A stretch of DNA of 62,289 nt, counting the filler, from an uncultured Methanosarcinales archaeon (GTDB taxonomy: Archaea; Nanobdellota; Nanobdellia; Woesearchaeales; CAYSVS01), in the NCBI GenBank assembly GCA_964589485.1. It is 2 parts of 2 records of this genome, joined end to end, with 100 filler letters (N's around TTAATTAATTAA, not from the genome) between each part and the next. Parts side by side here need not be neighbours in the genome. Positions count along the whole stretch, not along the records: positions 31,451 to 62,289 come from CAZPRK010000013.1; 1 more part is not named here. The stretch is one strand, 5' to 3'. The notes below the pieces were generated by a model. That model did not search any database. It was not told the origin of the DNA and worked only from the letters and a program-made list of their open reading frames with translations. The translations under genes were made by a program, and so were the position numbers. This document shows, one piece after another, positions 31,351 through 58,346 of the stretch; positions within the stretch are counted from its first letter, which is position 1, and every line of letters starts with the position of its first letter.

Positions 31351-31450
31351 NNNNNNNNNNNNNNNNNNNNNNNNNNNNNNNNNNNNNNNNNNNNTTAATT
31401 AATTAANNNNNNNNNNNNNNNNNNNNNNNNNNNNNNNNNNNNNNNNNNNN
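31351..31450. other. artificial contig-joining linker
   Basis: 44 N + TTAATTAATTAA (stops in all six frames) + 44 N. Confidence 0.95.
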
Positions 31451-34400
31451 CACTTACATTAATATGATAAAAACCAACAGGTAAGGTAAAGTTATGAGTT
31501 AAGTTGCCATTAGTTATATTAAATCTGAAAGTGTCATTAATAAAATACTGATCGATAGCTACATTATCACTTGCATTAAAATCAACTAAAAATCCACTTC
31601 CTAATTCAACAGTTATGTTATTTGGATATTCATCCCATGTTGGTTTCTTTAAGTCAGGTAACGGTTCTGTTAAAAAAATAGGGTAACTTAATCCATCATT
31701 CATTTGCCATACATTATTAAAATCCCAACCTTGGTTTGTAAATGTTGATTGTGTTTGCATGATTGCGGTAGTATTTCCACTCATTCCATCATCTTCACCA
31801 TTTCCTGTTGCATTCATGTTTGGATTTAAAGAACTATCAAAGAAAATTCCAGATGCATAACTATTAGGTATTGACTTTCCAACTATTCCACCAGCATTAT
31901 TAGTTCCATTTGTAATATTTCCAGCATAATAAGAAGTAGTAATATTAAAATTCTTTCCAAAAACATTTGAACTAATTTTTCCAACTAATCCACCTACAAA
32001 ATCATTTCCACTTACATTCATAGTACTATAAGTATTGTTCCAAAATTCTCTTGATTGTTCAGTATATCCATAAAAACCTCCGACATTATCATTTCCTTTA
32101 ACAATTCCTTTAGAATAAACATTTAATGCACTTCCTCCTTCATATTTATATCCCAAAAGCCCACCTACTTGATCACCTGTAGAATTTACATTTCCCTCAA
32201 AAGATACATTAATTAATGTACCCATAAATCTTGCATCTCCAATTAATCCTCCAACTTTCACATTAATTCCAGATCCAACTTTATTTGCACTTATATTCCC
32301 TTTAACATGAACATTTGTTAAATTAGCTCCTCCTGTAGTATCTGATGTTTTACCAATTAAACCCCCAATATAACCTGTTACAGTAGTATAAGAAGTTACA
32401 TTTAGTCCAGTTATATTGATATCTCTAAGAATTGGTAAACTATTAACTTCAGTATATCCTATCAATCCACCAGTATAAGATTTTCCTGCAGAAGTTAAAT
32501 TATGAAAACTAACATTGCTAATTATTACATTAGTTTCAACTTTTGTAAATAACCCTACATAATTTTGATTCTCATCCATAAGAATATCATTAACAATATA
32601 TCCTTTTCCTTCAAAACTTTTATTATATTTTGTAACTGCTCCATCATATATGTCATTATACCAATTTGTAAAACTTATGCCTGAACAGTTAATATTGTTT
32701 CTTAATTCAATCGCTTCATTTGCTCTTATTGCATCTTGCATTTGAGTACAATTTTTAATTGAAATAATGTGAGTACTTTCTGCAGTTAATGTTTTATGAC
32801 TTGGTTCGGAACAAGTTACTGAATAATCATGTTCAAAGCTACTACTAAAACTCATAGTTTTATTATATATCAAAGAAGTTGAGTTCCATGACATTTCATA
32901 AACTGTTCCATTATTGTTAAAAGTAATATTACAACTTGCTCCACTAATTCCAGCTCCAGTATTTGTATCTGAATAATTAGCAATAAAATTAATTACTTGG
33001 TTGAACCCTTCACTTCCTGTGTATGCTGAAGTAACTGTTAAATTAGAATTCATTGAAGCAATTCCTGAATGTGTTAACCCTGATAAAATGTAAGTATCTT
33101 CATAAGAACAAGTGATACTTTTTCCATTAATTGTTTTTGAATTTTCACCCATACAATCAGATATTTCAAACTTAGCTTCATCTGATTCAGAACAATCTGT
33201 TGAAAAATTATCTATACTTTCAACTCTTGAATCTTTTACACAAATTGCAGTATTATTTATTATTGCAGTTTTTGTTGTTTTATTCAAATATCTTTGAAGA
33301 GTTAATTCATTTACAACCATACCGTTTAATAATTTTTCAATTTTAATTTCTTCTCCTGTTTTTAATAATTCCAATTGATGAGTTGAAAAGTTATGATTAA
33401 ATGAAACAGTATTATTATCTCCATCAGTTATGTTTACGGTTTGTAATCCAGTATAAGTGTTGTTTAATGTTTCAGATCCAGATATTAATAAAGTAGCATT
33501 AAATCCTATTGCATTAATATTACTTTGATTTCCAATTAAACTATCTTTAATATCTTCAACTCCATCTCCATCGAGATCTTCCCAGAAAAAATAATGTATA
33601 GGATATGAACTTTCAGTTCTCCAAATATTAGTTAAATCCCAATTTGTAAATGTTCCATTTTGCTTTAATTGCCATGTTAATTTACCAAGGACGTTTGCGT
33701 TATTTGAAGGTTTACTACTTCCACCCATAGGTCCTTGAATTAATGAAGTGTCGTTATCATAAAAGTTATCTCCCAAATTACCACTTCCTGTATCTCCTAA
33801 AAAAGCTCCTACATATGCATTAGATTTGTTAATTATTCTACCTGCAAAATAATTTCTATATAAATTGCTAGATGTTCCGTATTCACCTCCGAAACCACCT
33901 AAATATAAACTTCCACTTGTTAATGTTGATTCTACAGTTGAATGAGAAAAACTATCATTAATTTCTGTATAATATGTTACCCTACCTGCAAAACCTCCTA
34001 TATAAGAGTTACTTCCTTTTACTTTACCTTTAGAAAAGGATCTAATGAAATAATTGTATTTATTGGATTGTCCATAACTATATCCTGTAAAACCTCCAAC
34101 ATATTGATCACCTTCTACATTACCAATAAATGAACTATCATAAACTGATGTATTATCGTATGCATAACCTATAAATCCACCAATGTAATCGTCAGATCCA
34201 ATAACATTTCCTTTAACATGAGAATTATTTACAAAAAAATATGAAGAATCTTGATTACTTCCTACAAGTCCACCTATATTATCTACATCAATGTCATAAG
34301 ATGAAATAGAAACTGTTAGATTGATACCTATTATATTAGTTTTTGAATAAGCTTTTCCTATTGCTCCACCAATGTCTCTTACTATCCCTACAACTGAAAT

Positions 34401-35087
34401 ATTACCTTGACTATCTACTAATTTTAAATTTTCAGAATAACCAACAAATCCTCCTACGTTAATTTCACCTTGTATTTTTCCAAAGACTCTAGAATTATTA
34501 ATTATTGTACCAAATCCGTTTGGTGAAGTTGCTCCGATGATTCCGCCATTTTTATCGTCTTTAGTAACTAAAGTACCATTAAATGTAACATTAAAAAATG
34601 TTGAATTTTCAGCATATGCTACAATACCCCCCGCATAATCTTGACTACTCCCTGTATGATTAATAGAAGCGTTAATATAAACATTAGTTATATTTACATT
34701 TAAAGCTTGACCGATCAATCCACCTGGAGATGTTCCTGCTTTTATTGTTAGATTTTGTAATATAATATCTCGTACTATAGAATTTTTAGCAATTGGGATT
34801 AATCCAACATATTGGCTACTATATGAGCTAGTAGTACCAGTTAAAGTTAGGTTAAATATAGTAAAATTATTTCCATAAAAATTTTCAGTAAAAGTTGCAA
34901 CATTTCCCGATCTCCAATCACCAAAATCTACACCAGCACAATTAAGATTTGAAGTAATATTTGTTTCATTATTATTTTCTATAGATGTTTTTAAATCTTC
35001 ACAATTTGCAACATTATTTATTCCTGCAAGAACAGTAGAACTACATAAAACTAATACAAAAACTAATAATACCCCTCTTTTCCTCAA
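31451..35087 (-). CDS. large secreted surface protein with two GLUG-motif domains; C-terminus lost in gap
   Basis: signal peptide; many VGG[LF]xG repeats; DLDGDGVED Ca-binding-like motif; ends in a cadherin/Ig-like repeat. Confidence 0.85.
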
Positions 35088-35236
35088 ACTATTACCCTTA
35101 TTTCTATCAAACTAAGAGAAAAAAAATACACCCCTCAAAATATGATAGTATTGTACTGTTGCTCAAAAGAAATAATACTACTCTAGTATATAAACTTTTC
35201 GACTGAAATATTTATTTTATCGTCGATACTACTTAT

Positions 35237-38200
35237 TTATTTCAATAATCTATTAATTACAGAAACTGGCCATTTTTTATTTTTAAGTTCACTATGTATT
35301 TTTTCAACACTATGACCTTTTTTTAAATGGTTTAATACATAATCTTTTGCTAAATTTAAGTGTTTTACGTCTAGTCCTGGGATTCTTCTAATTTTTAAAA
35401 CGTTAGTATATATAACAATTGATTCAATTAATTTATGTGAACACTTTTTTTCTTCCAATTTTCTTGATATTTGGTTAATTGTATGACCTTTTGCAAGCAT
35501 ATTTTTCACATATTTTAAAACTATTATGAAGTTATCTTGACTAAATTTACTTATGTGTGCATTGTTTATACTTTTTGTTGTTTGTATTAAATTACTAAAT
35601 TTATGTAATAAAGTTTGAAACTCTTTAGCTTCTTCATAAACTGTTTTTTTAGATGCTTTTTTATTTTTGATCATTATGTGTTGTTTTAAACTAATTACTA
35701 TTTTTTCAAAGTCGTGTAACTCTTTATTAACTAGTGAAGATGTTTTTCTTTTTTCAGTTTTAATGAAATCATGAACAAAATGTATTAATTTTTCAAAGTA
35801 AATTTTTTCTTCATTTAATACGTTAGCTAATTTATTTTTATCTTTTTTAAGTGTATTTTTAAGATACATACCTAATTTGTGTTTTAAATCATTAATATCA
35901 CTAAATATGTTTTCTTTTTTATTTTTAGGTGGTTTATTTAAAACTGAGTATAACGCAAAAATAATTCCTATTGTTAATAATATTACTAAAATAATAGAAA
36001 CGAATCCACTTTTAGAAGTTTTTTCTTCTATTAATTCTGGGCTTTCTATGATAGGTTCTTTAATTTCTTCAATAACTTCTTCTTCCTCCTCTTCTATTAC
36101 TTCTTCAACTATTTTTTCTGTTTCAGTATCTTTTAATGAAATTGCAAAGTAACTAAATCCAGGTGTTTCTGCTGAATAATATACATAAGTAGAATCTTCT
36201 TTAGTAACTTTAGTTTCTAATTTATTCCACTCATTATTATATCTAAATAATGCGATATCATCTTTATTTTTATTTCCTATCCATGACTTTTTAACTTTAA
36301 AATTAATTTCAGCTTTTTCTATTTTTACTGCGCTTTGTAAACTAATATCTTCATATTTGTATAGTTTACCTTCAACTGTTTCTGAAGTAGGATTTTTATC
36401 TAGTGTAATTACTTTTAATCTAACTCTTATCGTTTCTTCAGTTGGGAATACCTTTACTGATTTAATTGTAGATAGACTACTTTCTACATCAAATATATGA
36501 GGTGAATTTATTGTGTAATATTTACTATAAAATTCATTACTTTCTAATTTTGTTGGTGCGTTTGAAATTCCTCCTCCTGAGCTTCCTCCAGATGAACTAC
36601 TTGAACTTGAAGAACTACTACTTGATCCACCTGAGCTAGGAGCTTTACTTCCTTGGCTTTTAGTTGCAGTAATGAAAGTTGAGAAGTGACTTACATTTGC
36701 TTCGTATGTAATGAAATCTCCAACGTTACTTACATTAGTTGTATTTAATTCTTCAAATGAAGTAGTACTTCCTGATTGTGTTGAATATAATGAAATATTA
36801 TTGTATGAAATATTTTGTGCATTTAATTTTGCTTTAGCAACTTTAAAAGTAATTATTGAGTCCATACTTGTATTACTTGTATTTGATTCAATGTCAAAAG
36901 AAGTGAATGTTGGTACAGTATAAAGAGTTGTAAATTCAGATGGAACAGTAACTCTTACTGTTAAATTAATTGAAGCGTCTACAGGTAGGTCTCTTAATTT
37001 TTCAACAGTGTTTACTACAATTCCAGTGAAATTAGCATCACCTGATCCTAATGTTGGTGTTGCAGATAACCCAGTTCCAGATATAATTACAAAAGAATAA
37101 TTAATTATTCTTAAATTACTTTGATTATCCCATATTCTTAAGTATAATGTTTGGTTTTGAACTGAAGTGTTATAGTATGGTAATATATTTGTATTGTTTG
37201 AATTTATTGCACTTCCACTATTTAATAAATTAATTAATGTTCCATTTGTTGTTGTTAAAGTAATATTTGCATATTCATTAACTCTAATATTAAAGCTAGA
37301 TAATGACACTGAACTTGCGTTGATAACACTTCCATTTACTATATCTAAGACTCTTATTGCAGGAGAAGTAGTATCGTTAACAAATACAGTTATTAATGTT
37401 GAGTTTACATTATTACTTGTATCATTAACACTTACATTTATGTGGTATGTTCCTAAATTAATTATGGAAGCGTTTGTTAAATATCCTGAATTATTTATTG
37501 TAAATCTACTTGTATCATTTATAAAATATTTACTAATAGAGTCTCCATCTGAAGCGTTAATATCGACTGTTATTTTTCCTGTGTATAATTCAGCTGTAAT
37601 GTTTTGAGGAATTTGATCCCAAGTAGGTGCACTTAAATCTGAAACAACTAATGCAAATGTTAAACTGTTTACATTGTTGTATGTGTCATTTACTGATATA
37701 TTAATGTTATATGTTCTAGGTGATAATGCTGAATTGTTTTCAAAGTATCCACTTGAATTAATTTTAAAATTAGTTGAATCATTTAAGAAATATGTGCTAG
37801 TATTACTAATATCTGTTGAATTAATTTGAATAGCTAAGCTATTTGTAATATTAATAGTTTTATTACTTGGAATTTGAGTAAAGGTAGGTCCTGTTGTATC
37901 TTGTACGGTTATTATTAAGTTTAAATTGTTAGCATTGTTACTAGTATCGTTTACACTAACATTAATGTGATATGTTTGTATTGTTAATTTAGTTTTGTTG
38001 ATTAATAAACCACTAAAACTAATGTTGAAGTTAGTTGTATCGTTTACAATGAATTGACTAATTCCATTTGAATCTGTTGCATTAATATTAATTGATAATG
38101 ATTCTGTGTGAAATTCAATTGATCTATCTGCAGGAGTCTGAGTAAAGCTAGGTACTCCTACATCATTTACTGTTAATTTGAATGTAATACTGTTTACATT

Positions 38201-41200
38201 ATTGTATGTGTCATTTACACTTACATTAACAAAGTACACTTGAGCTGATAAATTAGTGTTGTTAATTAATACACCATTGAATGTAATGTTAAAGTTAGTT
38301 GTATCATTTATGAAGAATCTACTTATTCCGCTTGCGTCAGTTGCATTGATATCTAATGATAACGATTCATTACTTGATATACTTCTGTTTGCTGGAATTT
38401 GAGTAAAAGTAGGTGAAGTAGCATCTTGGACTGTAGCACTTAAAGTTAAACTACTCACTAAATTGTTTGTATCATTAACACTTATATTAATATAATATGT
38501 TCTTATAGATAATGCAGTTGAGTTGATTATAACACCAGATTGACTAATGTTAAAGTTTGTTGTATCGTTAATAAAGTACCTACTTAATCCGCTTGAATCT
38601 GATGCATTTACGTCAACTGATAAAGCATCAGTTAAATATTCTAATGTTAAATTACTCGGAATTTGGTCAAATGTTGGTACTGATGAATCGCTAATTGTAA
38701 CTGAGAAATGTAAATCTTTAATGTTATTTAATGTATCATTAACACTTATATTAATATGGTATGTTTTTGAAGATAAATTAGTGTTGTTTTCTAAGTACCC
38801 ACTTGAATTTATTTTAAAGTTAGTTGTATCGTTTACTTTGAATGAACTTAATCCTGATGAATCAGTAGCATTTAACTGTATAGCTAATGCAGTTGTAGTA
38901 TTTAATGTTCTATTTGATGGAATTTCTGTATAACTAGGTCCTGTAGAATCTTGAATAGTTACACTAAACATTAAACTGTTTACATTATTACTAGTATCAT
39001 TTACACTTACATTCACTAAAATTGTTCCTGTAGATAGTAATGTTTTGTTTGTTAATACACCTGATTGACTTATATTAAATCTAGTAGTATCGTTAATGAA
39101 GTATTTGTCTAATGCAAGATCTGTTGCATTAATATTGACTATTAATGTATCAATTCCATATTCTATAGTTTTATTTTGAGGTATTTCCGTGAAGGTTGGA
39201 GCACTTGAATCCGTTACAGTTAATGCAAAGTGTAGATCTTTAATGTTATTTTGAGTATCATTAACTGAAATATTTACGTGATATGTTCTTACACTTAAGT
39301 TAGTGTTATTTTCAAAGTAACCTGATGAATTAATTTTAAAGTTAGTTGTATCATTAACTTTAAATGAACTTATTCCCGATACATCCGTAGAGTTAATTTG
39401 AATTGCTAATGCACTACTTACATCAATACTTCTATTTGCTGGTATTTCTGTATAACTTGGAGTTGTTGTATCTTGGATAATAACGCTAAACATTAAGTTA
39501 TTTACATTATTGCTAGTGTCGTTGACACTTACATTTACTAAATATGTTCCAATAGATAATAATGTTTTATTAGTTAAAACTCCTGATTGGCTAATGTTAA
39601 ACCTCGTAGTGTCGTTGATGAAATACTTGTCTAAACTAGTATCTGTTGCGTTTATGTCAACTGATAAAGAATCTGTTGAATATTCTATTGTTTTATTTTG
39701 TGGGATTTCGGAAAAAGTTGGTGCAGTTGAATCTGTTACTGTTAATGCAAAGTGTATATTTTTAACATTATTTTGAGTATCATTAACTGAAATATTAATG
39801 TGATATACTTTTGAAGATAAGTTAGTATTATTTTCAAAGTAACCTGATGAATTAATTTTAAAGTTTGTTGTGTCGTTAACTTTGAATGAACTTATTCCAC
39901 TTGTGTCTGTTGCATTAATTTGTATTGCTAATGCACTACTTACATCAATACTTCTGTTTGCAGGGATTTCAGTAAATGAAGGACTTATTGTATCACTTAT
40001 AGTTACTTTGTATATTGTGTAATTTACATTATTTTGAGTATCATTTACACTTACATTTACTTCATGAGTACCTACAGCTAATAAAGTGTTATTAAGTAAT
40101 GTACCGGATGAGTTAATTACAAATTTAGTTGTATCATTTACTTTATATTCACTTATTGTATTTTGGTCAGTAGCAGTAAAGGTTACTTGTAAGCTACCTG
40201 TTAAATATTCTAAAGATGCATTTTCAGGGATAGTAAGCCAAGTTGGAGCAATGGTATCCTGTATAATTACTTGGAAGAATAAATAATTCACATTATTGTA
40301 TGTATCATTAACACTAACGTTAACTACATGAGTTCCGATAGCTAAAGGTGAACTATTTTGAAGATATCCTGTATTGTTAATTGTAAATTTACTACTACTG
40401 TTAACTTCCCAATGATCAATGTTAGATACATCAGTAGCATTAATTTGTATTGCAATGCTTTCTACTTCAAATTCTTGTGTTAGGTTTTGTGGAATCTGTG
40501 TAAATGAAGGAGAAGTTGTATCTTGTACGATTATAGATATTATTAATGAATTTACATTGTTGTTTGTATCATTAACGCTAACATTAACTAATATTGTTCC
40601 AATGCTTAAGTTAGTGTTATTTTCAAAGTAACCTGTTGAATTAATTTTAAAGTTAGTTGTGTCATTTACAAAGAAGTTTGAAATTCCACTTGCATCTGTT
40701 GCGTTTATATCTGTTGCTAAATTTTCACTAAAGTATTCTATAGTTTTATTTTGTGGTATTTGTGTAAATGTCGGAGCATTTGTTTCAGTAACAGTTAACG
40801 CAAAGTGTATACTTTTAACATTATTTTGAGTATCATTAACTGAAATATTTACATGATAAACAATTGCACTTAAATTAGTGTTATTTTCTAAGTAACCTGT
40901 TGAATTAATTTTAAAGTTAGTTGTATCGTTTACTTTGAATGAACTTATTCCACCTGCATCTGTTGCGTTTATTTGTATAGCTAAGTTAGTTGTTGAATCA
41001 ATGCTTCTATTTGCTATTGCTTGAGTAATGCTTGGAGAAGTTATATCTTGTACAGTTACTGAGAATATTGTACTATTTCTATTATTACTTGTGTCATTTA
41101 CTGTAACATTTACTAAAGTTGTTCCAACAGCTAATAATGAACTGTTAATTAATAGGCCACTTCCATTTATACTAAATCTAGTTGTATCGTTTACAAAATA

Positions 41201-44032
41201 TGTACTAATTGCTATATCATCAGTAGCATTAAAGTCAATTGATAATGAATCTGTTGAATATTCTAGAGTTACATTTGTTGGGTATTGAGTAAACGTAGGA
41301 GGGTGTATGTCTGAAATTGTTACCTTGAAGAATAAATAATTTACATTATTTTGTGTATCATTTACACTTACATTAACTACATGACTTCCTACTCCTAATA
41401 GAGTTGCGTTTTGTAAATATCCTGAATCATTTATTGTAAATTTACTTGTTCCGTTTAATGTCCAGTTACTTATTCCACTAGCATCAGTTGCATTAATTTG
41501 TAATGCTAAATTATTTTCTAAATAACTTAATGTTTGGTTTTGTGGAATCTGTGTAAATGAAGGGGAAGTTGTATCTTGTACGATTATAGACATTATTAAT
41601 GAATTTACATTGTTGTTTGTATCATTAACACTCACATTAACTAATACTGTTCCAATGTTTAAGTTAGTGTTATTTTCTAAGTAACCTGTTGAATTAATTT
41701 TAAAGTTAGTTGTGTCATTTACAAAGAAGTTTGAAATTCCACTTGCATCTGTAGCATTTACTTGTACTGCGAAAGCTTCAGTGAAAAATTCAACAGTTTT
41801 ATTACTTGGAATTTCATCAAACGTTGGAGGATTAGTATCAGTGACAGTTACACTAAATACAGTTGAATTAATATTATTACTTGTATCATTTGCACTTACT
41901 AATGCATACCAAGTTCCAACTGGCAATGTAATTGCATTATACAAACTTCCATTTGCGTTTATAATAGTAAATCTAGTAGTATCATTAATATAATATGCAC
42001 TTAATGCTACATCATCTGTTGCATTAAAATTTGTTACAAAACCAGAACCAAACTCTATTGATTTATTACTTGGGTATTGAGTAAATGTTGGTGAAACTTG
42101 GTCACTAACAGTTACTTTCATAAATAAATAATTTACATTGTTTTCTGTATCATTAACACTTACATTAACAATATGGTCACCTATTGCTAGAGGAGTTGTA
42201 TTTATTAAATAACCAGAATCATTAATTTCAAATATTGTGGTTCCATTTACGCTCCAATTTCCAATTCCGCTTGCATCTGTAGCATTTATTTGAACTGCAA
42301 AATTATTTCTATTCCAAGTAATAGTTTTATTTTGTGGGATTTGACTAAATGCAGGAGCTGTAGTATCGCTCACTACTACATTAAAATGCATTTGATTTAA
42401 ATTTCCTTCAGTATCGTTTACTAATAAGTTACCGTGCCAAGTACCAACAGGAAGTAAAGTATTATTTTCTAAGTAACCACTTTGATTAACTTTGAATCTA
42501 GTTGTATCATTTAAGTAATATGCACCTAAACCTGATGCATCTGTTGCTTCAGCATCTACAGCTAATCCTTCAGTGAAATATTCTGTTGTTTGGTTTGCTG
42601 GAATTACAGAAAATGTAGGTGGGGTATTATCACTATATACAACTTGGAAAGTTAATGTGTTTTGATTGTCGTATGTATCGTTAACTATAACTTGAAGATG
42701 GAATGTACCAACTGGTAAAGTGGTTGCGTTTTGTATTATACCTGTTGCTCCTGCTACACTAAATCTTACTGTATCGTTTGAGTAATATGCTTTAATTCCA
42801 GATGCATCTGATGCATTTACATCAGCATAAACTTGATTTGTTGCATATTCTAAAGATTGATTTGGACCAATTTGATTCCAAGTTGGCCCCGTAGTATCAC
42901 TAACTACTACATTAAAATGCATTTGATTTAAATTTCCTTCAGTATCGTTTACCAATAAGTTACCGTGCCAAGTACCAACAGGAAGTAAAGTATTATTTTC
43001 TAAGTAACCACTTTGATTAACTTTGAATCTAGTTGTATCATTTAAGTAATATGCACCTAAACCTGATGCATCTGTTGCTTCAGCATCTACAGCTAATCCT
43101 TCAGTGAAATATTCAATTGTTTGGTTTGCTGGAATTACAGAAAATGTAGGAGGAGTATTATCGCTATATACAACTTGGAATGTTAAAGTATTTTGATTGT
43201 CATGTGTATCGTTAACTATAACTTGAAGATGGTATGTGCCAATTGCTAGAGTACTTGCATTTTGAATAATTCCAGTTCCTCCGCCAACTGTAAATCTGGT
43301 TGTGTCATTTGAGTAATATGCTTTAATCCCGGAGGCATCTGATGCATTTACATCTGCATAAACTTGATTTGTTGCATATTCTAAAGATTGATTTGGACCA
43401 ATTTGATTCCATGTTGGAGAAGTAGTATCTGAAATATTTATTATATAAACTAAGTTATTGATGTTATTATAAGAATCGTTTACAACTGCTTGTACATGAT
43501 AATAACCAACTGTTAAAAAAGAATTGTTTGTTAGATTTCCTGTTGTTGGATTAATTGTAAACCTAGTTGTATCGTTTACATAATAAACACTAATTCCGCT
43601 CACGTCAGTTGCGTTTACATCAACTGACCATTGTTCAGTAAAGTATTCTACATTTTGAAGAGGGGCACCATGAAGAAAAGAAGGAACAGTAGTGTCGTTT
43701 ACATCTATTTGTATGTGCATTTGATTAGTATTGCCTACAGTATCATTTACATATGCCATTAAGTGATATCTTCCAACGGACATAAAAGTTTTATTTATAA
43801 CTGTACCTGTTGTATGGGTCACATTAAATCTTACTGTGTCATTAGAAAAATACCAACTTAAACCATCAGCGGGGTCACTTGCATTTAAATTTGTAATATA
43901 GGACTCTGTAAAATATTCAACAGTTCTATTTGGGACTGTTTGATTCCATGTAGGAGGATTAGCGTCACCTAAAGCAGATTGTGCTATCAGGATCAGAAAT
44001 AGAACATTAAATATTAACCCTCTCTTATTCAC
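35237..44032 (-). CDS. giant surface glycoprotein/adhesin: about 25 cadherin/Ig-like ~88-aa repeats, PGF-pre-PGF domain, TM anchor, cytoplasmic tail
   Basis: signal peptide; DTTxPxFxQIPxN...INATD...NDTTNFxIN...VNVSVNDT repeats; AETPGFSYFAI; TM GFVSIILVILLTIGIIFAL. Confidence 0.9.
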   Translation of the reverse strand: MNKRGLIFNVLFLILIAQSALGDANPPTWNQTVPNRTVEYFTESYITNLNASDPADGLSWYFSNDTVRFNVTHTTGTVINKTFMSVGRYHLMAYVNDTVGNTNQMHIQIDVNDTTVPSFLHGAPLQNVEYFTEQWSVDVNATDVSGISVYYVNDTTRFTINPTTGNLTNNSFLTVGYYHVQAVVNDSYNNINNLVYIINISDTTSPTWNQIGPNQSLEYATNQVYADVNASDASGIKAYYSNDTTRFTVGGGTGIIQNASTLAIGTYHLQVIVNDTHDNQNTLTFQVVYSDNTPPTFSVIPANQTIEYFTEGLAVDAEATDASGLGAYYLNDTTRFKVNQSGYLENNTLLPVGTWHGNLLVNDTEGNLNQMHFNVVVSDTTGPTWNQIGPNQSLEYATNQVYADVNASDASGIKAYYSNDTVRFSVAGATGIIQNATTLPVGTFHLQVIVNDTYDNQNTLTFQVVYSDNTPPTFSVIPANQTTEYFTEGLAVDAEATDASGLGAYYLNDTTRFKVNQSGYLENNTLLPVGTWHGNLLVNDTEGNLNQMHFNVVVSDTTAPAFSQIPQNKTITWNRNNFAVQINATDASGIGNWSVNGTTIFEINDSGYLINTTPLAIGDHIVNVSVNDTENNVNYLFMKVTVSDQVSPTFTQYPSNKSIEFGSGFVTNFNATDDVALSAYYINDTTRFTIINANGSLYNAITLPVGTWYALVSANDTSNNINSTVFSVTVTDTNPPTFDEIPSNKTVEFFTEAFAVQVNATDASGISNFFVNDTTNFKINSTGYLENNTNLNIGTVLVNVSVNDTNNNVNSLIMSIIVQDTTSPSFTQIPQNQTLSYLENNLALQINATDASGISNWTLNGTSKFTINDSGYLQNATLLGVGSHVVNVSVNDTQNNVNYLFFKVTISDIHPPTFTQYPTNVTLEYSTDSLSIDFNATDDIAISTYFVNDTTRFSINGSGLLINSSLLAVGTTLVNVTVNDTSNNRNSTIFSVTVQDITSPSITQAIANRSIDSTTNLAIQINATDAGGISSFKVNDTTNFKINSTGYLENNTNLSAIVYHVNISVNDTQNNVKSIHFALTVTETNAPTFTQIPQNKTIEYFSENLATDINATDASGISNFFVNDTTNFKINSTGYFENNTNLSIGTILVNVSVNDTNNNVNSLIISIIVQDTTSPSFTQIPQNLTQEFEVESIAIQINATDVSNIDHWEVNSSSKFTINNTGYLQNSSPLAIGTHVVNVSVNDTYNNVNYLFFQVIIQDTIAPTWLTIPENASLEYLTGSLQVTFTATDQNTISEYKVNDTTKFVINSSGTLLNNTLLAVGTHEVNVSVNDTQNNVNYTIYKVTISDTISPSFTEIPANRSIDVSSALAIQINATDTSGISSFKVNDTTNFKINSSGYFENNTNLSSKVYHINISVNDTQNNVKNIHFALTVTDSTAPTFSEIPQNKTIEYSTDSLSVDINATDTSLDKYFINDTTRFNISQSGVLTNKTLLSIGTYLVNVSVNDTSNNVNNLMFSVIIQDTTTPSYTEIPANRSIDVSSALAIQINSTDVSGISSFKVNDTTNFKINSSGYFENNTNLSVRTYHVNISVNDTQNNIKDLHFALTVTDSSAPTFTEIPQNKTIEYGIDTLIVNINATDLALDKYFINDTTRFNISQSGVLTNKTLLSTGTILVNVSVNDTSNNVNSLMFSVTIQDSTGPSYTEIPSNRTLNTTTALAIQLNATDSSGLSSFKVNDTTNFKINSSGYLENNTNLSSKTYHINISVNDTLNNIKDLHFSVTISDSSVPTFDQIPSNLTLEYLTDALSVDVNASDSSGLSRYFINDTTNFNISQSGVIINSTALSIRTYYINISVNDTNNLVSSLTLSATVQDATSPTFTQIPANRSISSNESLSLDINATDASGISRFFINDTTNFNITFNGVLINNTNLSAQVYFVNVSVNDTYNNVNSITFKLTVNDVGVPSFTQTPADRSIEFHTESLSININATDSNGISQFIVNDTTNFNISFSGLLINKTKLTIQTYHINVSVNDTSNNANNLNLIITVQDTTGPTFTQIPSNKTINITNSLAIQINSTDISNTSTYFLNDSTNFKINSSGYFENNSALSPRTYNINISVNDTYNNVNSLTFALVVSDLSAPTWDQIPQNITAELYTGKITVDINASDGDSISKYFINDTSRFTINNSGYLTNASIINLGTYHINVSVNDTSNNVNSTLITVFVNDTTSPAIRVLDIVNGSVINASSVSLSSFNIRVNEYANITLTTTNGTLINLLNSGSAINSNNTNILPYYNTSVQNQTLYLRIWDNQSNLRIINYSFVIISGTGLSATPTLGSGDANFTGIVVNTVEKLRDLPVDASINLTVRVTVPSEFTTLYTVPTFTSFDIESNTSNTSMDSIITFKVAKAKLNAQNISYNNISLYSTQSGSTTSFEELNTTNVSNVGDFITYEANVSHFSTFITATKSQGSKAPSSGGSSSSSSSSSSSSGGSSGGGISNAPTKLESNEFYSKYYTINSPHIFDVESSLSTIKSVKVFPTEETIRVRLKVITLDKNPTSETVEGKLYKYEDISLQSAVKIEKAEINFKVKKSWIGNKNKDDIALFRYNNEWNKLETKVTKEDSTYVYYSAETPGFSYFAISLKDTETEKIVEEVIEEEEEEVIEEIKEPIIESPELIEEKTSKSGFVSIILVILLTIGIIFALYSVLNKPPKNKKENIFSDINDLKHKLGMYLKNTLKKDKNKLANVLNEEKIYFEKLIHFVHDFIKTEKRKTSSLVNKELHDFEKIVISLKQHIMIKNKKASKKTVYEEAKEFQTLLHKFSNLIQTTKSINNAHISKFSQDNFIIVLKYVKNMLAKGHTINQISRKLEEKKCSHKLIESIVIYTNVLKIRRIPGLDVKHLNLAKDYVLNHLKKGHSVEKIHSELKNKKWPVSVINRLLK
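42361..43422. repeat. near-identical tandem duplication of 531 bp (two protein repeats)
   Basis: ttaaaatgcatttgatttaaatttcc at 42381 and 42912; 177-aa block repeated almost verbatim. Confidence 0.9.
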
Positions 44033-51426: not shown

Positions 51427-53316
51427 TTATTCTTTAACTAATAAGATTTTATCTTTAGCTTTAATTATATATTTATCATCTGGAATTTGCATAAATTCTT
51501 TTTCAGTTTTGATTGCTATAATATTATAATGTTTACCGATAATTTTATCTGCATTAATTACACTTTTTCCAGTAAGTTTATTTGCTTTTTTTTCAATAAG
51601 TTCTATACCTTTACCAGTATGTGTAAGAGCGTCCATTATCCATTGAATTACATTAGGATAGTGTACTGAAATAGATAATAAATGTCCACCTAATGCACTA
51701 CTAGGAACAACAAAATTAGCTCCTGCTTTTTCTGCTATTGGAACAAATGCATCTCTATGAATATTTGCTATAATAACTACTTTATCTGATAAAGATCTTA
51801 TTAAATTAATGCATAACATTGTGTCTGAGTCATTCATTAATGAAACAAAAACTACTGTGTTATTTGTGATATATTTTTGAATTATGTTTGCTTTTAAGGG
51901 ATTTCCTTCTAAAAAATTTACATTATCTTCTTTTTTATTTTGTATATTTAAACTTATTACATTTATTTTATGTTTTTCAGCAGTTAATTCTTGAATTAAA
52001 GATTCGATTGTATTATCATAACCTAAAGCTAAAAATTTAGTTGATTTTGATATTTTACTTTTAATGTCTGTAAAGTTTGAAGCTTTAGTTTTATTTGGAA
52101 GAAATGTAAATTCAAATAAAAAAGAAGTTTTTTCTTTTGGAGTAAGTTTAAAATCATCATATGGCATAATTAATGTTGATTTATTATTTGCCATTAAGGA
52201 TTTTAAATTTTTAACTAAAAATAAAATTTTACTATAACTATTTTTTTGGAAAAGGTAATTTATTCCGTCAAGTAATATGATGGAGTTAGGCATATTTTTA
52301 GTAAAATCTGATATTGTTGAATATAGTTGTTGAACTTCACTACTTCCAATGCTTAATTCTTCTGTTTCCGAATCAGTTAACCAAATAATAGGAGTAGTTT
52401 TAAGATTAAATTCTTTTTTAATTTCTTTAGGTTTTCTTGAAGTTATAATTAATCCATAATTTTTTTTCTTAAGTTTATCTAATAAAACATTATAACTACT
52501 TTTTCTTGATTTTTCTGTACAAATTAAATATTGACCTGATTCTATTGGAAATTTTTTGATTTCTTTATTATTAACTTCTAACTTAGATTCTTCATGGAGA
52601 GGTTTAATGTTTAAAAACTTATACTTTAAAATTCCATATCCTATAAAAAGTGACATTAATGTAGTTAGAATATTATTATGGGGAAAGATTCTATAGCCAA
52701 TTAAAGGAAGTAAAACTCCAGTAGGAATACCAACTATTATAGGAATACTAATGCCTATAATTAAATATTTAAGTCTATTTTTTAATTCATTTAGTTTTGT
52801 TTTTAGATATTTTTTAGTTAAAATGTATAAACAATAAAATAATGCTAAACTTTGAAACCATAGGAAAAAATAAGTATACAATGGGCCATATTGGTATTGA
52901 AATAAATGTATACCTGAACCATAAGTTGATTCTAATGGACTTAATAATCCAGATATCATTGCATTTGTTGTCCATAAGAAAATTAATATAACAAACATTG
53001 GAATGTACCAAAATTTAATGTGTCTTGTTATTATATTATTTCTTTTTAGATATGCCCAAGCAAAATGTGGAAAAATAAATATTGAAATGATGTAACCTGT
53101 ATAAGATATTTTTCCATAATTTAGAGCTGTACTATAATCTCCACTCATCCACATAAATGCTTTTCCTAAGTCCCATATACCTTGAAAAAAGAATAATAAT
53201 GCAAATAATTTATTTATTTCAGAAGAATTATTTTTTTTATAAACAAGATATGCAATTCCAAATTTAAAGAAAACTGCTAAGAATGAAAATAAAATTACTG
53301 AATTGTTTGTTATCAT
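51427..53316 (-). CDS. fusion: 7TM sensor-type membrane domain + DUF835 + RCK (TrkA-N/C)
   Basis: about 7 hydrophobic helices ending YGILKYKF; GLIITS..P, PIIWLT, ILLDGINYL; LEGNP, AGANFVVP, RCK-C tail. Confidence 0.8.
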   Translation of the reverse strand: MITNNSVILFSFLAVFFKFGIAYLVYKKNNSSEINKLFALLFFFQGIWDLGKAFMWMSGDYSTALNYGKISYTGYIISIFIFPHFAWAYLKRNNIITRHIKFWYIPMFVILIFLWTTNAMISGLLSPLESTYGSGIHLFQYQYGPLYTYFFLWFQSLALFYCLYILTKKYLKTKLNELKNRLKYLIIGISIPIIVGIPTGVLLPLIGYRIFPHNNILTTLMSLFIGYGILKYKFLNIKPLHEESKLEVNNKEIKKFPIESGQYLICTEKSRKSSYNVLLDKLKKKNYGLIITSRKPKEIKKEFNLKTTPIIWLTDSETEELSIGSSEVQQLYSTISDFTKNMPNSIILLDGINYLFQKNSYSKILFLVKNLKSLMANNKSTLIMPYDDFKLTPKEKTSFLFEFTFLPNKTKASNFTDIKSKISKSTKFLALGYDNTIESLIQELTAEKHKINVISLNIQNKKEDNVNFLEGNPLKANIIQKYITNNTVVFVSLMNDSDTMLCINLIRSLSDKVVIIANIHRDAFVPIAEKAGANFVVPSSALGGHLLSISVHYPNVIQWIMDALTHTGKGIELIEKKANKLTGKSVINADKIIGKHYNIIAIKTEKEFMQIPDDKYIIKAKDKILLVKE

Positions 53317-54413: not shown

Positions 54414-54737
54414 TTATATTTTTTCTAAAATTTCATTTAACTTTTTCTTAAATCCTTCTTCAGGATAAGATCCAACAATTCTGTCTAATTCTTTACCATT
54501 GTGAAAAACCATTAAAGTAGGAATACTCATAACTCCATTTTCTTGAGCAATTTCTTCATTATTTTCAGTGTTTACTTTAACAAATTTAGCTTTTCCTTCA
54601 TATTCTGAAGATACTTTTTCGAATACTGGAGCAAAACTCATACAAGGTCCACACCAAGATGCCCAAAAATCTACCACTACAGGAATGTCATTCTCTAAAA
54701 CTTCTGACTGAAAATTTTCTTTATTTATTTCTTGCAT
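54414..54737 (-). CDS. trxA: thioredoxin
   Basis: [15 protein letters not shown]. Confidence 0.97.
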
Positions 54738-54739
54738 TT

Positions 54740-55951
54740 TTACACCTCAATGAATTTGTCTAGTCTTTTTAATGCAACAGCATATGATGCAATTCTAAGA
54801 CTAACTTTATTTTTTCTTTTAACTTCAAGAATTTCATTATAACTTTTATTTATTTTTTCTTTTAATTCATGATTGATTTTTTCAAGTGTCCATTTTTTAT
54901 TATCTTGATTTTGTTTCCATTCAAAATAACTTACACAAACTCCACCTGAGTTAGCTAAAATATCAGGAACAACATTTATTCCTTTTTTGTTTAATATAGT
55001 ATCAGCTTCTGGAGTTGTTGGACCATTTGCTAACTCAATAATTATATTGGCTTTTATTTTATTAACATTATCTAGTCTAATTTGGTTTTCCATGGCAGCC
55101 GGAACTAATATGTCAACTTCTAATTCTAATAATTCACTAGGAATTATTTCTTTCGCGAAACCTTTCACAGTTCCATTAGTATCTTTATATTTGAATAATT
55201 CTTTAATGTTAAGTCCTTCTTTATCAAAAACTGCACCTTTAGAGTCGGAAATCGCAATTACTTTTAACCCTGCTTCATTTGCCAATTCAGCCATAACTCT
55301 TCCAGCATTTCCAAAACCTTGTATTGCAATAGTTGTACATCCTATACATAAAGTTCCTAAAACATCTTGCAAGACATAAAATCCACCTTGAGCAGTAGCT
55401 TTATCTCGTCCTAAACTTCCTCCTTTATTTAGAGGTTTTCCTGTAATCATTCCAGGATCTTTTCTTTTTTCAACTTTTTCAAATTCATCTAACATTATTG
55501 CCATTATTTCAGGGTTAGTATAAACATCTGGAGCTGGACTATCTAAATGACTGCCTAAGTTATTATGCATAGATCTAATATAAGCTCTTGATAATTTTTC
55601 AATTTCATTTTTGCTAAGTTCTTTAGGGTTTACTATAATTCCACCTTTGCCGCCACCCATTGGAATGTCAATAACTGCAGTTTTAAAAGTCATCCAAAGA
55701 GCTAATGCTTTAACTTCATCCATAGAAACATTAGGATGAAACCTAATTCCTCCCTTAAATGGTCCCCTTAAATTACTATGTTGAACTCGGTATGATTTAA
55801 AAATTTTCACTTCACCAGAATCCATTTTTACAGGAATATTAGTTTGAATACTTCTTTGTGGCTTTTTTAAAATATCTATTTTATAATTTGGAAGTTTAGC
55901 TATTTTGTTTGCTTCACTTATTAAATCCAAAGATTGTTCGAATAATGACAT
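54740..55951 (-). CDS. gdhA: Glu/Leu/Phe/Val dehydrogenase (glutamate dehydrogenase)
   Basis: [41 protein letters not shown]. Confidence 0.93.
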
Positions 55952-56094
55952 GGATATTCGAATATGGTTTTTATTTATAAAGTTATCTTTTGAATGAAAA
56001 AGTAAAAGATTACAGTTAGTTAAAAATTCTGAATCTTTTAACCGCTGTTAGTTTCTTTTTCCATACGTAGTGTGGGAAAATTTCGACCGAAAAG

Positions 56095-57193
56095 TAATTT
56101 TTAGTGGCGTTCTATTAGGCGAACACAGTGAGCTATTAAGAACAAGTATCAAGGGGGACATTTCGTTAATCTTTCATTTATAGAAAATTTAGTAGAATTA
56201 TTTAAATACTTCTCATCATTACATATCTATATGAATGATTCAGTAAAAAGATGGATGCCATTAATAATAGCAATAGTTTTAATAATTTGTTCTTTCTTAT
56301 ATCTGAATAATAAGATTGATAACTTACAATTAATTAAAAAGGAGCATATAATAATGACAAATAATTTTTCAGAAAACGTTGTAAAAATAAAACCAAGTAT
56401 AGTGATGATTTTTGCTGAAACAACTAAGTCAGAACTCCCATTTACAGGTGGGGAATATATAAAGATGGATAATAAAGTTTTTTCAAAAGGAACTGGTTTT
56501 ATTGTCACTAGCGATGGATATATATTAACTGCAAACCATGTCGTTAAAGAGGCAAAGGATAAAATTCAAGTTCGAACAATTGAAGGAGATAAATTTAAAG
56601 TATATGAAGCAGAACTTATTTCTTCAAATAATGATGCAGATGTAGCATTACTAAAAATCAACGTAAACGATTTGCCTCATGTAGACTTAGGAGATTATGA
56701 TAAATTTGAAGATGGAATGAGTGTAGGATTTATCGGATTCCCCTTGTCTATGAATTTGCCATTAACCAATAATGGAATTATCTCAGGAAAGGGTAAATTC
56801 CAATATGAAAAAGATGGAGATGGTGTAGATATATATACATTAAATGCTTTTATTAATCAAGGTAATAGTGGAGGTCCCGTTTTTTCTGCAAATACTGGTG
56901 AAGTTATTGGAATAATAAATGCAAGAATGAATGTAGTTAATGAAAAACAATTCATCAAATATGATCCTACTGGAAGAGGACAAGCACTGATTGGGGGTGT
57001 GGATCCAATTGCTTTAGCAGTTGAAACATATAATACCAATCTACGATTTATTGGTGATGTGACTCAGGTTGGAATAGGATATTCCACATCTATAGAATAC
57101 GGTAAATCTCTTTTGAAAGAAGCAACTAAGTAATATTTTTCAACTTATTTTCTAGAAATGTCCCCCTATTAACTATTTAGCCACTAAAAATTA
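56095..57193. repeat. nested inverted repeats enclosing the protease gene
   Basis: taatttttagtggc 56095-56108 / gccactaaaaatta 57180-57193 (14 bp); agggggacatttc 56152-56164 / gaaatgtccccct 57155-57167 (13 bp). Confidence 0.9.
56231..57133 (+). CDS. trypsin-like serine protease (S1C/HtrA-like, no PDZ) with N-terminal TM
   Basis: GTGFIV, LTANHVV, DVALLKI, GNSGGP catalytic triad. Confidence 0.93.
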   Translation: MNDSVKRWMPLIIAIVLIICSFLYLNNKIDNLQLIKKEHIIMTNNFSENVVKIKPSIVMIFAETTKSELPFTGGEYIKMDNKVFSKGTGFIVTSDGYILTANHVVKEAKDKIQVRTIEGDKFKVYEAELISSNNDADVALLKINVNDLPHVDLGDYDKFEDGMSVGFIGFPLSMNLPLTNNGIISGKGKFQYEKDGDGVDIYTLNAFINQGNSGGPVFSANTGEVIGIINARMNVVNEKQFIKYDPTGRGQALIGGVDPIALAVETYNTNLRFIGDVTQVGIGYSTSIEYGKSLLKEATK

Positions 57194-57195
57194 TT

Positions 57196-57288
57196 GAACT
57201 TAACATCAGGATTTAGAGAAGTTTTTGCGAAGCAAAAATTTGGGTAAACGAGTGCAACGGAGTGAACCTCTAAATCCTTGTTAAGTTC
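57196..57288 (+). other. attC-like recombination-site hairpin
   Basis: ACTTAAC (RYYYAAC) 57198-57204 and GTTAAGT (GTTRRRY) 57280-57286; stem gaacttaaca-[tc]-aggatttagag / ctctaaatcct-tgttaagttc. Confidence 0.5.
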
Positions 57289-57414
57289 TTCCGTTAGGAA
57301 TGAGAAATAGTCTGCAAGACGGTTTTCACGAAGTGAAAAATTTCGAAGAGTTGGAAGAACAACGTAAAAATATAAATAACTTGCAAAGCAAGACTAAAAT
57401 TCAGAAAAGGGCAA

Positions 57415-57615
57415 CTAAAAATTATCTTTTATTTCTTGTATTATATTATCAATCATCTCAGAGTAAGTATATTCAGGAAGATTTAATTCTTTTAATACAC
57501 TTAGATCTTCAGAAAAAATTGGAGATTTATCTTGTTTATCTTCTGATTGAACTTCAATATTGAATGGAGTTAGAATATCTTTAGCTAAATCAAATCTTGA
57601 TTTCAATTCAGGCAC
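57415..57615 (-). pseudogene. probable 3' fragment of an unknown gene
   Basis: protein-like composition; 5' end collides with recombinase fragment, no RBS. Confidence 0.4.
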
Positions 57616-57616
57616 T

Positions 57617-57760
57617 GCATTTGGAACTAATTTAGTTAAACAAGGTGTAAGTGTTAAATCAGTTCAAGAACAAATGGGGCATAAGTCAGATAAAACAACT
57701 TATGGGTATGTTCATTATTCACCTAGAGAAGATATTCAAAAGTTTCTTAGAAATAATTAA
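57617..57760 (+). pseudogene. tyrosine recombinase/integrase C-terminal fragment
   Basis: AFGTNLVKQGVSVKSVQEQMGHKSDKTTYGYVH matches box II (F.T.L...G.....vq..lGH....T..Y.H); upstream HxLR missing. Confidence 0.8.
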
Positions 57761-57872
57761 GATAACAACTTTTAACCTCCACTGGACACACTGGACAGGT
57801 GCGCGTGAGGTATATAAAGGAGTAAAGACAATACATACATTACATTGATTAAAAATTTTGATTTTTGCCTAA

Positions 57873-58346
57873 ATGAGGTGGTGTAGTGTGTCGTTATTAG
57901 TTTCAAAAGATACTCCTCTAAGTGAAATTACTTTAAGGAGATATGAAAAACCTGCAAACTTAGGTCATCGTGACTTAATAAAAAAATTATGTCTTTCAAT
58001 TGGTTTATTACAACCGGGTGATTCGAGAGATGTTATAGTGGATGTTTTGTATATTTTATTACAAAGTAAAGAAGAATTGCCAAGTGAAGAAGTTCGTTTA
58101 AGAGTTTTAGAATATAGAAAAGATAATAAATTATCTTTGAAAGGAGTTGCAGGATCAAATATAAGAAGACAATTAAGACGGTTAAGAGAATTGTTTTTAA
58201 TAGAAAAAACTGTTAATAAATATAGAGTTTATGAAAATAGTAACTTAACTCCAACTTTTGAAGAAAAATTGGAAAGTTATTTGTTAAAATCTATTGTTGA
58301 AAGAGTTAAAGATTACTACAAACAAGTTGATTCTATGTTTCAGTAG
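57873..58346 (+). CDS. hypothetical protein, winged-helix-like
   Basis: LSEITLRRYEKP, GLLQPGDSRDVIVD, SNIRRQLRRLRELFLIEK. Confidence 0.8.
   Translation: MRWCSVSLLVSKDTPLSEITLRRYEKPANLGHRDLIKKLCLSIGLLQPGDSRDVIVDVLYILLQSKEELPSEEVRLRVLEYRKDNKLSLKGVAGSNIRRQLRRLRELFLIEKTVNKYRVYENSNLTPTFEEKLESYLLKSIVERVKDYYKQVDSMFQ

Follow-up and report, generated by a model that had tools for sequence, protein, structure and literature searches.

Nested inverted repeats around a protease gene of a small-genome archaeon as candidate paired ends of an integron-like cassette

To our knowledge, integrons are the only well-studied system in which folded single-stranded DNA is recombined for the collection of genes, and the integron integrase is thought to require a special insert for the recombination of folded single strands. 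In the dif modules of Acinetobacter plasmids, cargo lies between inverted sites and the units follow one another in series, and archaeal rRNA genes are flanked by long-range processing stems. In this work, we analyze a locus of an uncultured archaeon (assembly GCA_964589485.1) in a window of 62,289 nt, which joins two contigs with 100 filler letters and carries the locus on contig C13. Two nested perfect inverted repeats here bracket a gene for a trypsin-like serine protease and are followed by a hairpin similar to the attC sites of integrons. On balance, we lean towards reading the two repeats as the paired ends of one mobile cassette, which would belong to an integron-like gene-capture system of small-genome archaea; this system is apparently undescribed.

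According to passages of PMC5027507, integron attC sites combine a conserved AAC/GTT box and an inner box with unpaired bases and with a terminal structure that varies; in the recombined strand, the extrahelical bases are found on the arm opposite AAC, and this strand is marked by an asymmetry of the G.T type. Excerpts of the survey by Ghaly et al. 2022 (PMC9668308) describe archaeal integrons with a true IntI and attC sites, as well as attC clusters that lack an integrase, and report that attC sites are similar at the order level, which holds for the present hairpins too; some of these hairpins may already have been counted as attC sites in that survey. Archaeal recombination by XerA at dif is the subject of PMC2958812.

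Read 5' to 3' on the + strand, the cassette consists of a TGTTA half-site, two small hairpins (hp1 and hp2), the left arms A and B with spacer X between them (A-X-B), the cargo, the right arms with spacer Y between them (B'-Y-A') and the attC-like hairpin with its TAACA/TGTTA ends (Table 1). The outer repeat (56095-56108 / 57180-57193, 14 nt) and the inner one (56152-56164 / 57155-57167, 13 nt) are both 100% identical, and the nested arms are separated by spacers of unequal length, the left one of 43 nt (56109-56151) and the right one of 12 nt (57168-57179). An earlier reading of the window from its sequence alone (below, the sequence-only reading) had reported both repeats, the two spacers, a GTTCT/AGAAC stem in the left one and a single bracketed gene for a trypsin-like protease with a TATA-like motif, and all of this was confirmed by inverted-repeat search, by the sequence itself and by the Pfam match of the product. 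The protease gene is the sole long open reading frame (ORF) between the arms; the encoded protein has a hydrophobic N-terminus, and its motifs TANHV, DADVALL and GNSGGP, read by eye, are those that we take to carry the His, Asp and Ser residues of the protease. The genome that holds the locus (G000) comprises 1.16 Mb with 28% GC and is archaeal, because it encodes TBP.

Lone inverted repeats are common in this genome: 365 of at least 13 nt were found in one count and 377 of 13-18 nt in another. The chance model consisted of ten Markov-1 random genomes searched for perfect inverted repeats of at least 13 nt with a spacer of 200-2000 nt, and each of them contained 262-302 lone repeats. Nested colinear pairs are rarer, with two in the own genome, namely the protease locus and an AT-rich pair on contig C7, none in nine of the random genomes and one in the tenth. 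The inner arm AGGGGGACATTTC has the top G+C count among the 365 arms, and neither arm sequence has another mismatch-free occurrence in the own genome. By these counts, the repeats taken within their own genome appear only mildly unusual and constitute weak evidence, and it is the comparison across genomes that carries the case. As separate observations from the same counts, the C7 pair (C7:9166-10257) has the arms GAACATAATGTAA and TAAAATAAATAAAT, about 1 kb apart, and each repeat length from 19 to 99 nt is present twice, together with one repeat of 101 nt; such a series is typical of one or two long inverted repeats with arms of at least 100 nt, the spacing of which crosses the distance limits used in the count.

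Across genomes, the arms covary with their own partners. Starting from 38 left blocks (two sets, 18 and 20), each of which extends from the half-site through hp1 and hp2 to arm B, exact reverse complements only were sought up to 8 kb downstream. Both arms had exact nested complements in 15 of the 38, at distances of 0.1-5.7 kb, and eight more had one arm matched. The two-arm matches comprised 10-15 nt per arm in 14 cases and 9 and 11 nt in one, and A' began 23-29 nt past B' in 14 of the 15 and 72 nt past it in the other. The upstream controls of the first set gave one 13-nt match, AT-rich and in the own genome, the others being 11 nt or shorter; the second set had little upstream sequence for such a control. 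The arm sequences do not represent one motif, as 11 distinct A sequences (for example, TCGGAAAAGAGGGC, TTTTTAGGGGGC, TAAATCTGGAGTCC and TTTTCGCAATCGCC) and 13 distinct B sequences (among them GGGCACACTC, GGGCAAGAAAAC and AGGGGTAATTTCTTT) each have their own matching partner. This holds even for neighbors: in the array G002:C43, the first cassette pairs with its own partner at 13 of 13 positions in B and 13 of 14 in A, including a T.G position, the second pairs over 12 nt in A and 10 nt in B, and the right arms of the first do not fit the left arms of the second across the hairpin. The mean longest complementary block within a cassette, compared with that between cassettes, is 12.2 versus 8.0 for A and 11.2 versus 6.8 for B. 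In the 12 cassettes for which both ends were compared, X always lies on the left and Y on the right.

Such covariation of whole helices argues for base pairing, and not for recognition of the arms by one protein, and we consider it highly probable that selection acts on the arms as the pairing ends of a family of mobile cassettes. The folded multi-stem architecture and the swappable cargo that had been proposed in the sequence-only reading both find support here, the former in the covariation and the latter in the recurrence of the same architecture around different genes in other genomes; paired arms thus occur at other loci, and these are not tied to the same protease.

The sequence that surrounds the arms is itself conserved. 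A DNA search with positions 55952-57420 as the query produced matches in 23 of 40 relatives (24 of 41 genomes with the own genome included), and among the listed matches at E <1e-5 all fall into non-coding flanks, at 70-98% identity and across different families. The flank matches often come several to a contig, 1-4 kb apart, and many are located at contig ends, as is expected of repeats. The left block (56046-56164, about 125 nt, with half-site, hp1, hp2, arm A, spacer X and arm B) was converted to a covariance model, R2. The model matches 88 of 151 genomes in the order, where one congener contains as many as 17 copies, and also nine genomes from other orders of the class; the order-wide tally of R2 and that given below each include one unpublished genome, G133. 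Alignments show that in the relatives the block begins at TGTTA(A/G) straight after a hairpin, and that the sequence of spacer X is conserved across families, whereas that of spacer Y is not. With a hand-named structure for the left block, 84.0% of the cells are paired, against 76.8% in shuffled and 34-53% in slid alignments, which is modest support for hp1 and hp2; four pairs show changes on both sides. The pairs of the GTTCT/AGAAC stem in X are conserved without covariation, hp1 has a conserved U.G in 7 of 12 sequences, and RNAalifold recovers hp2 only, in an alignment of which two rows are another sub-type.

An origin of the conserved flanks from tRNA, rRNA or another Rfam family was considered and rejected, since eight related loci gave only two tRNAs at the gathering score. 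Between 52000 and 62289, no Rfam family matches the element at E <=1 and one chance-level microRNA match lies elsewhere, and no tRNA was found in the window. In another genome, at G004:C92:2920-3560 (L061), a hairpin is followed by a left block that is broken after GAGT, before arm A, and then by the C-terminal part only of a recombinase gene. The same arrangement is found in the window at 57289-57760; the two genomes belong to different families and the intervening sequences differ, and breakage may occur preferentially at the junction that precedes arm A.

Directly beyond the outer right arm lies the attC-like hairpin (57196-57288), which the sequence-only reading had overlooked. Its covariance model, R1, matches 60 of 151 genomes of the order, and the hairpin of the own locus folds at -20.7 kcal/mol (z -6.0). 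In 83 copies, 95.1% of the cells are paired, compared with 78.6% in shuffles and 25-50% with a slid partner, double changes occupy 187 cells versus 44 in shuffles, and compensatory changes affect 10 of the 11 pairs of the inner stem; one further hairpin comparison showed compensatory changes at 8 of 16 pairs. The outer stem TAACA/TGTTA is nearly invariant and the 2-nt bulge is mostly TC, and the nearly invariant sequences of the hairpin as a whole are TAACA, TGTTA, ATTTGG and GAAGT. The top can be almost absent, as in minimal sites some 40 nt long, or exceed 100 nt, and usually contains mini-hairpins of the GCGAAGC and CTGCAAG types. The features of a folded attC-like site (outer box, inner stem, bulge, variable top) are thus present, without an unpaired central spacer. 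These substitution patterns indicate that the hairpin structure is under selection, and the hairpin is a likelier recombination site than the arms. Two exact IUPAC patterns, for the hairpin and the left block, had no matches in viral contigs, the patterns being narrow.

Hairpins separate cassettes in arrays that adjoin a gene for an XerA-type recombinase. In a set of 70 hairpin copies at 29 loci, with mechanically called ORFs of at least 60 aa, no locus had hairpins on both strands, the 38 intervals between hairpins had a median of 708 bp, and cargo ORFs were oriented with the hairpin strand in 26 cases and against it in 29 (the cassette of the own locus is of the former kind, and examples from G003 and G039 are of the latter). 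The cargo, found in either orientation, seems to come with its own promoter. Besides the S1 protease of the own locus, the genes between arms or between hairpins encode a LigT-like enzyme, a pair of nucleotidyltransferases, a P-type ATPase and radical SAM enzymes; further cargo comprises an Mrr nuclease, a 1656-aa papain-like protein, TrmB regulators, toxin-antitoxin genes, and ParE, PIN, Fic and AbiEii-like proteins, and many cargo ORFs belong to no family. One cassette is nearly empty: at G078:C30 (L103), around positions 200-680, a complete scaffold of minimal hairpin, left block, B'-Y-A' and full hairpin surrounds only about 120 nt, and the insert possibly encodes a tiny hydrophobic peptide.

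A hairpin match was found in 16 genomes among G000-G040, and in eight of these (G000, G004, G008, G009, G019, G020, G030 and G040) a tyrosine recombinase gene or a fragment of one is located on the same strand as a hairpin, at most 3 kb downstream of it. The best-fitting family of three array-linked enzymes is NF040815, the archaeal XerA, with 217.3, 210.4 and 218.8 bits, just under the cut-off of 220. Against TIGR02249, the integron integrase, the same three enzymes score 176-197 bits, and the matches obtained in the 41 genomes fall into two stretches that skip model positions ~181-237, where the IntI-specific insert lies. No transposase gene was found beside the arrays among the proteins scanned. 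Service by a tyrosine recombinase, as had been suggested from the sequence, is therefore supported for the element family, which is linked to such genes, and not for the own locus, where the neighboring gene is a dead C-terminal fragment.

Table 1. The protease cassette and adjoining features of its platform, with positions counted along the window
Feature	Position	Strand	Remarks
Minimal palindrome TAAC-CGCT-GTTA	56039-56050	+	left boundary, at the chromosome junction; read from sequence; further minimal hairpins of this kind were observed
Half-site TGTTAGTTTC	56046-56055	+	overlaps the palindrome; equivalent to the TGTTA end of the hairpin family
Left boundary as a whole	56039-56055	+	palindrome and half-site
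Small hairpin hp1	56057-56080	+	stem CCATAC/GTGTGG with a T.G pair, loop GTA
Small hairpin hp2	56081-56092	+	TTTC GACC GAAA
Arm A (outer left), TAATTTTTAGTGGC	56095-56108	+	inverted-repeat search and partner searches
Spacer X, 43 nt	56109-56151	+	own stem GTTCT 56109-56113 / AGAAC 56139-56143
Arm B (inner left), AGGGGGACATTTC	56152-56164	+	inverted-repeat search and partner searches
TTTATA motif	56178-56183	+	upstream of the protease ORF
Cargo ORF, 300 aa, trypsin-like serine protease	56231-57133	+	Pfam Trypsin_2, 3e-26
Arm B' (inner right), GAAATGTCCCCCT	57155-57167	+	inverted-repeat search
Spacer Y, 12 nt	57168-57179	+	T-rich, TTTA at the end; sequence varies between cassettes
Arm A' (outer right), GCCACTAAAAATTA	57180-57193	+	followed by TT, then the attC-like hairpin
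attC-like hairpin (~95 nt)	57196-57288	+	R1 match spans 57190-57294
Hairpin outer stem, GAACTTAACA / TGTTAAGTTC	57196-57205 / 57279-57288	+	
Hairpin 2-nt bulge, TC	57206-57207	+	
Hairpin inner stem	57208-57218 / 57268-57278	+	variable top above, with a GCGAAGC mini-hairpin
Start of a second left block, other sub-type, 64 nt	57289-57352	+	87.5% identity to G001:C96:101-164
A'-like third copy, GCAACTAAAAATTAT	57411-57425	+	1 mismatch to A'; no hairpin after it
Tyrosine recombinase gene remnant	~57560-57760	+	only the last ~55 residues recognizable

The own locus is a fossil: its single protease cassette looks intact, the cassette after it is truncated, and the recombinase is dead. The second left block breaks off after CGAAGAGTT, where its arm A should start, and the A'-like copy further on is probably debris of this truncated cassette. 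The sequence-only reading had spoken of a neighboring recombinase; the left neighbor is a glutamate dehydrogenase gene (54740-55951, - strand), and the only recombinase nearby is the remnant on the right. This remnant covers only positions 135-169 of PF00589, retains the GH...Y end, has the Arg-His of the HxLRH motif replaced (SGT) and is too short for assignment to the XerA family; the genome encodes no close full-length relative of it, the best being 24% identical. Past 57779 the native chromosome resumes, starting with a promoter-like repeat.

In the congener G001, a stretch of 138 nt without any platform sequence separates the homologues of the two flanking genes; these homologues have another relative orientation and the intergenic sequences do not align, so that no exact insertion point can be read. 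No protease homologue at E <=1e-10 was found in two congeners, and the best homologue in 200 genomes is 35% identical; no close homologue of the protease cassette, in another context from which its boundaries could be mapped, was found in these genomes. By these comparisons, the cassette is an accessory element. Public metagenomes were checked as assembled contigs from four runs of two studies. The contigs of the organism itself keep one arrangement, with no joint at the cassette, although contigs drop rare variants and cannot show rare forms; other contigs of the community agree with the locus in the left block as far as 56095 and in the hairpin from 57186-57201 onward, and diverge elsewhere.

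Several observations concern the surroundings of the locus. The repeat with which the chromosome resumes (57779-57826) is a motif of about 45 nt, CCACTGGACACACTGGACAGGTGCGCGTGAGGTATATAAAGGAG, with a TATA-like box at its end; it is present in eight copies in the own genome (86-100% identity) and in at least 25 in two congeners (82-98%), precedes the ORF 57873-58346 and the G001 homologue of that ORF, and looks like a shared strong promoter or regulatory box. In the congener G002 (C64:4397-6605), about 2.2 kb separate the homologues of the thioredoxin and glutamate dehydrogenase genes that are adjacent in the window (54414-55951). A single ORF at 51427-53316 (- strand) combines a 7TM histidine-kinase N-terminal region with DUF835 and TrkA N and C domains, and the gene that follows it encodes a TrkA-type potassium channel. 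Further away, at 31395-44032 (- strand), lie two adjacent very long ORFs of 1230 aa and 2931 aa.

The likeness to integrons comprises co-oriented arrays of short cassettes with highly diverse accessory cargo; imperfect hairpins between the cassettes, conserved in structure rather than in sequence; an outer box that holds the sole invariant letters, including AAC/GTT, together with bases that bulge out and a top that varies in length; the presence of a tyrosine recombinase gene beside the array; and families of sites that are common within an order. By analogy with integrons, the recombinase would act on the folded single-strand hairpin, with strand exchange in the TAACA/TGTTA box, and cassettes would be excised as circles between two co-oriented hairpins and inserted at another hairpin or half-site. 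Such a circle would join B'-Y-A'-hairpin to its own hp1-hp2-A-X-B, so that A could pair with A' and B with B', and a four-way junction would be closed around the hairpin. The pairing would probably take place in the excised single-stranded circle, and integration would cut the junction structure at TGTTA and leave its halves on either side of the cargo. That the halves bracket exactly the cargo and have unequal spacers would then follow from the splitting of the junction at TGTTA. Alternatively or additionally, the pairing could draw two flanking sites together in single-stranded chromosomal DNA. Folded with DNA parameters, the hypothetical circle junction of the own cassette reaches -52.6 kcal/mol (z -9.4), and all 14 pairs of A and all 13 pairs of B form, around the hairpin, hp1 and hp2.

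Integron membership nevertheless falls short on three counts: the integrase itself, where the recombinase gene lies and how it is oriented, and how the cassettes are oriented and supplied with promoters. The recombinase here is of the XerA type and lacks the insert of integron integrases, and its gene lies downstream on the hairpin strand, whereas intI of integrons is divergent at the entry end (attI); the cargo is found in either orientation, apparently with its own promoter, whereas integron cassettes are mostly promoterless and co-oriented. The hairpins also differ, since they have only a 2-nt bulge and no unpaired central spacer, and their G.T pairs favor the strand with the bulge on the AAC arm. 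Moreover, many cassettes contain an extra conserved 5' block and the cassette-spanning helices A/A' and B/B', for which we know of no integron counterpart. The sequence-only reading had recognized no named element in this architecture. This has to be qualified, as integron cassettes with attC sites are a named closest relative, and it holds to the extent that several features of integron membership are missing.

Some of these differences weigh against the integron-like reading, and other points have to be set beside them. None of the 41 genomes reaches the TIGR02249 cut-off of 265 bits, and the recombinase genes lie downstream of the arrays on the same strand, unlike intI. G.T pairs favor the + strand by 41 to 10, but the model with which the copies were collected rewards G.U, so that the folded strand is ambiguous, and on the + strand the 2-nt bulge sits on the AAC arm, the opposite of integron bottom strands. 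No report of XerA-type enzymes that act on folded single strands was found in the literature searched. The arms, too, are incompletely represented. No partner was found for 15 of the 38 left blocks; nine of these had at most 1.83 kb of downstream sequence, while six had at least 3.1 kb, and because of these blocks without an exact partner, the arms are either not universal, or imperfect, or farther away in some cassettes. Many cassettes of the arrays have a hairpin and no A/B arms at all, and the arms are an optional addition that is not essential to the system. The own locus offers only a 12-nt minimal palindrome as its left site, together with a dead recombinase; its array is made up of a single full hairpin, a minimal palindrome and the truncated cassette that comes next. 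Finally, mobility is deduced from comparative anatomy, and no recombination product was seen in the contigs.

Other explanations have been weighed against the same evidence. The arms could be sites of the recombinase in a duplex module with inverted protein-binding sites, such as an Xer-dependent dif module or an invertible segment, and the cassette would invert or be swapped at them. The recombinases linked to the arrays do belong to the tyrosine recombinase family, as in Xer/dif systems, and dif modules likewise present cargo units in series flanked by inverted sites. The nearly even split of cargo orientations (26 versus 29 ORFs) would fit inversion, and both truncated platforms, that of the own locus and that at G004:C92, break where arm A begins. 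Invertons and shufflons, which are served by tyrosine or serine invertases, are similar in that inverted repeats surround a gene-sized segment near a recombinase gene. Yet dif sites are short, duplex and recognized by sequence, whereas the present arms vary freely while they continue to pair, between adjacent cassettes as well as between genomes. With 11 A and 13 B sequences, one recombinase could not recognize all of them by sequence; the near-invariant sequences are in the hairpin and not in the arms, and it is this long hairpin, in which changes are compensatory, that forms the conserved site. Inversion between A and A', which would realize the invertible cassette of the sequence-only reading, would move X and Y, and it is unsupported because these spacers never swap sides in the 12 cassettes compared. 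In favor of a duplex module, an exchange at B and B' would turn around only the cargo, with both spacers unmoved. Unlike in invertons, the arms are specific to the cassette, the spacers of 43 and 12 nt are non-homologous, the units are tied to cassette arrays, and no inverted form was seen in the contigs of the four metagenomic runs, from which rare forms are dropped. A duplex module is accordingly rated as unlikely. Action at the level of RNA appears improbable as well. In such a panhandle, the ends of the transcript would pair for the processing, circularization, stabilization or insulation of the cassette RNA, and the T-runs of the hairpin would form a two-way terminator. Pairing over 1-5.7 kb is ordinary for RNA, the processing stems of archaeal rRNA being likewise two-part long-range helices 5' and 3' of an insert of 1-5 kb; the excess of G.U-type pairs on the + strand and the conserved U.G of hp1 are of the expected kind, and T5 runs occur in arm A, hp1 and the hairpin, on both strands. 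These same runs, however, lie inside the scaffold and, from what is known of archaeal termination, should stop the RNA polymerase before the scaffold is complete. In about half of the cases the cargo is antisense to the scaffold strand, so that the scaffold-strand RNA would not be an mRNA. In contrast to rRNA stems, the insert is protein-coding and lies in either orientation, there are T-runs within the stems, no bulge-helix-bulge was recognized by eye, and the elements are mobile and present in many copies. Loops of the GCGAAGC type are a classic kind of stable DNA mini-hairpin, the Rfam search described above gave no match on the element, and a panhandle would leave both the recombinase link and the cassette arrays unexplained.

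A non-autonomous transposon with terminal inverted repeats, similar to a miniature inverted-repeat transposable element (MITE), that has picked up cargo and depends on a transposase elsewhere, would account for variable cargo between inverted ends, for the many copies that often lie at contig ends and for their patchy distribution among families. We regard it as very unlikely. No target-site duplication was recognized by eye at the ends of the own element, and the recurrent neighbor of the arrays is a tyrosine recombinase gene, with no transposase beside them in the proteins scanned. The arms are not even terminal, as conserved sequence lies outside them, with the small hairpins to the left and the attC-like hairpin to the right, and they vary while the interior spacer X is conserved, which is the opposite of what is seen in transposon ends; the sequence-only reading had already rejected terminal repeats of an insertion sequence, and the differences between the arms of different cassettes, with conserved sequence outside them, are in agreement with that. 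Functionless repeats that arose by chance in an AT-rich genome can be practically dismissed: about 370 single inverted repeats of 13-14 nt and a nested pair in one of ten random genomes would make the own locus by itself only mildly unusual, but the two-arm architecture, with the same spacing and with cassette-specific complementarity, recurs in 14 other cassettes from other genomes.

The integron-like reading can be taken one step further, to a gene-capture system distinct from integrons. In such a system, a plain XerA-type enzyme would act on folded single-stranded sites, and many cassettes would bring their own 'zipper' helices, A/A' and B/B'. With the attC-like hairpin and the two small hairpins, these would build a four-way junction in the excised circle, or else they would draw the flanking sites together in the chromosome and so provide each cassette with a handle of its own for excision. 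Structure-specific recombination would then have been elaborated a second time, independently, in a form that is widespread in one archaeal class. We put this forward tentatively and rate it below an even chance. In the full-text literature covered, which excludes subscription journals, no description was found of a cassette platform of the XerA type or of arms that span a cassette.

The feature formed by the nested arms is real, functional in the family and a fossil in the own genome. What the present window adds is the covarying helices A/A' and B/B', that is, the long-range helices that join the two ends of many cassettes. For the organism itself, the protease is thereby marked as an accessory gene of recent acquisition, and its platform has decayed since. 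For the archaeal order, the hairpin-bounded cassettes form a large family next to a plain XerA-type enzyme, and this family is present in more than half of the sampled genomes. If the proposed mechanism holds, it would represent another route to structure-specific recombination and a source of sequence-free recombination sites for engineering, and it would explain how very small symbiotic archaea swap accessory genes, such as those for proteases, nucleases, toxin-antitoxin pairs and transporters.

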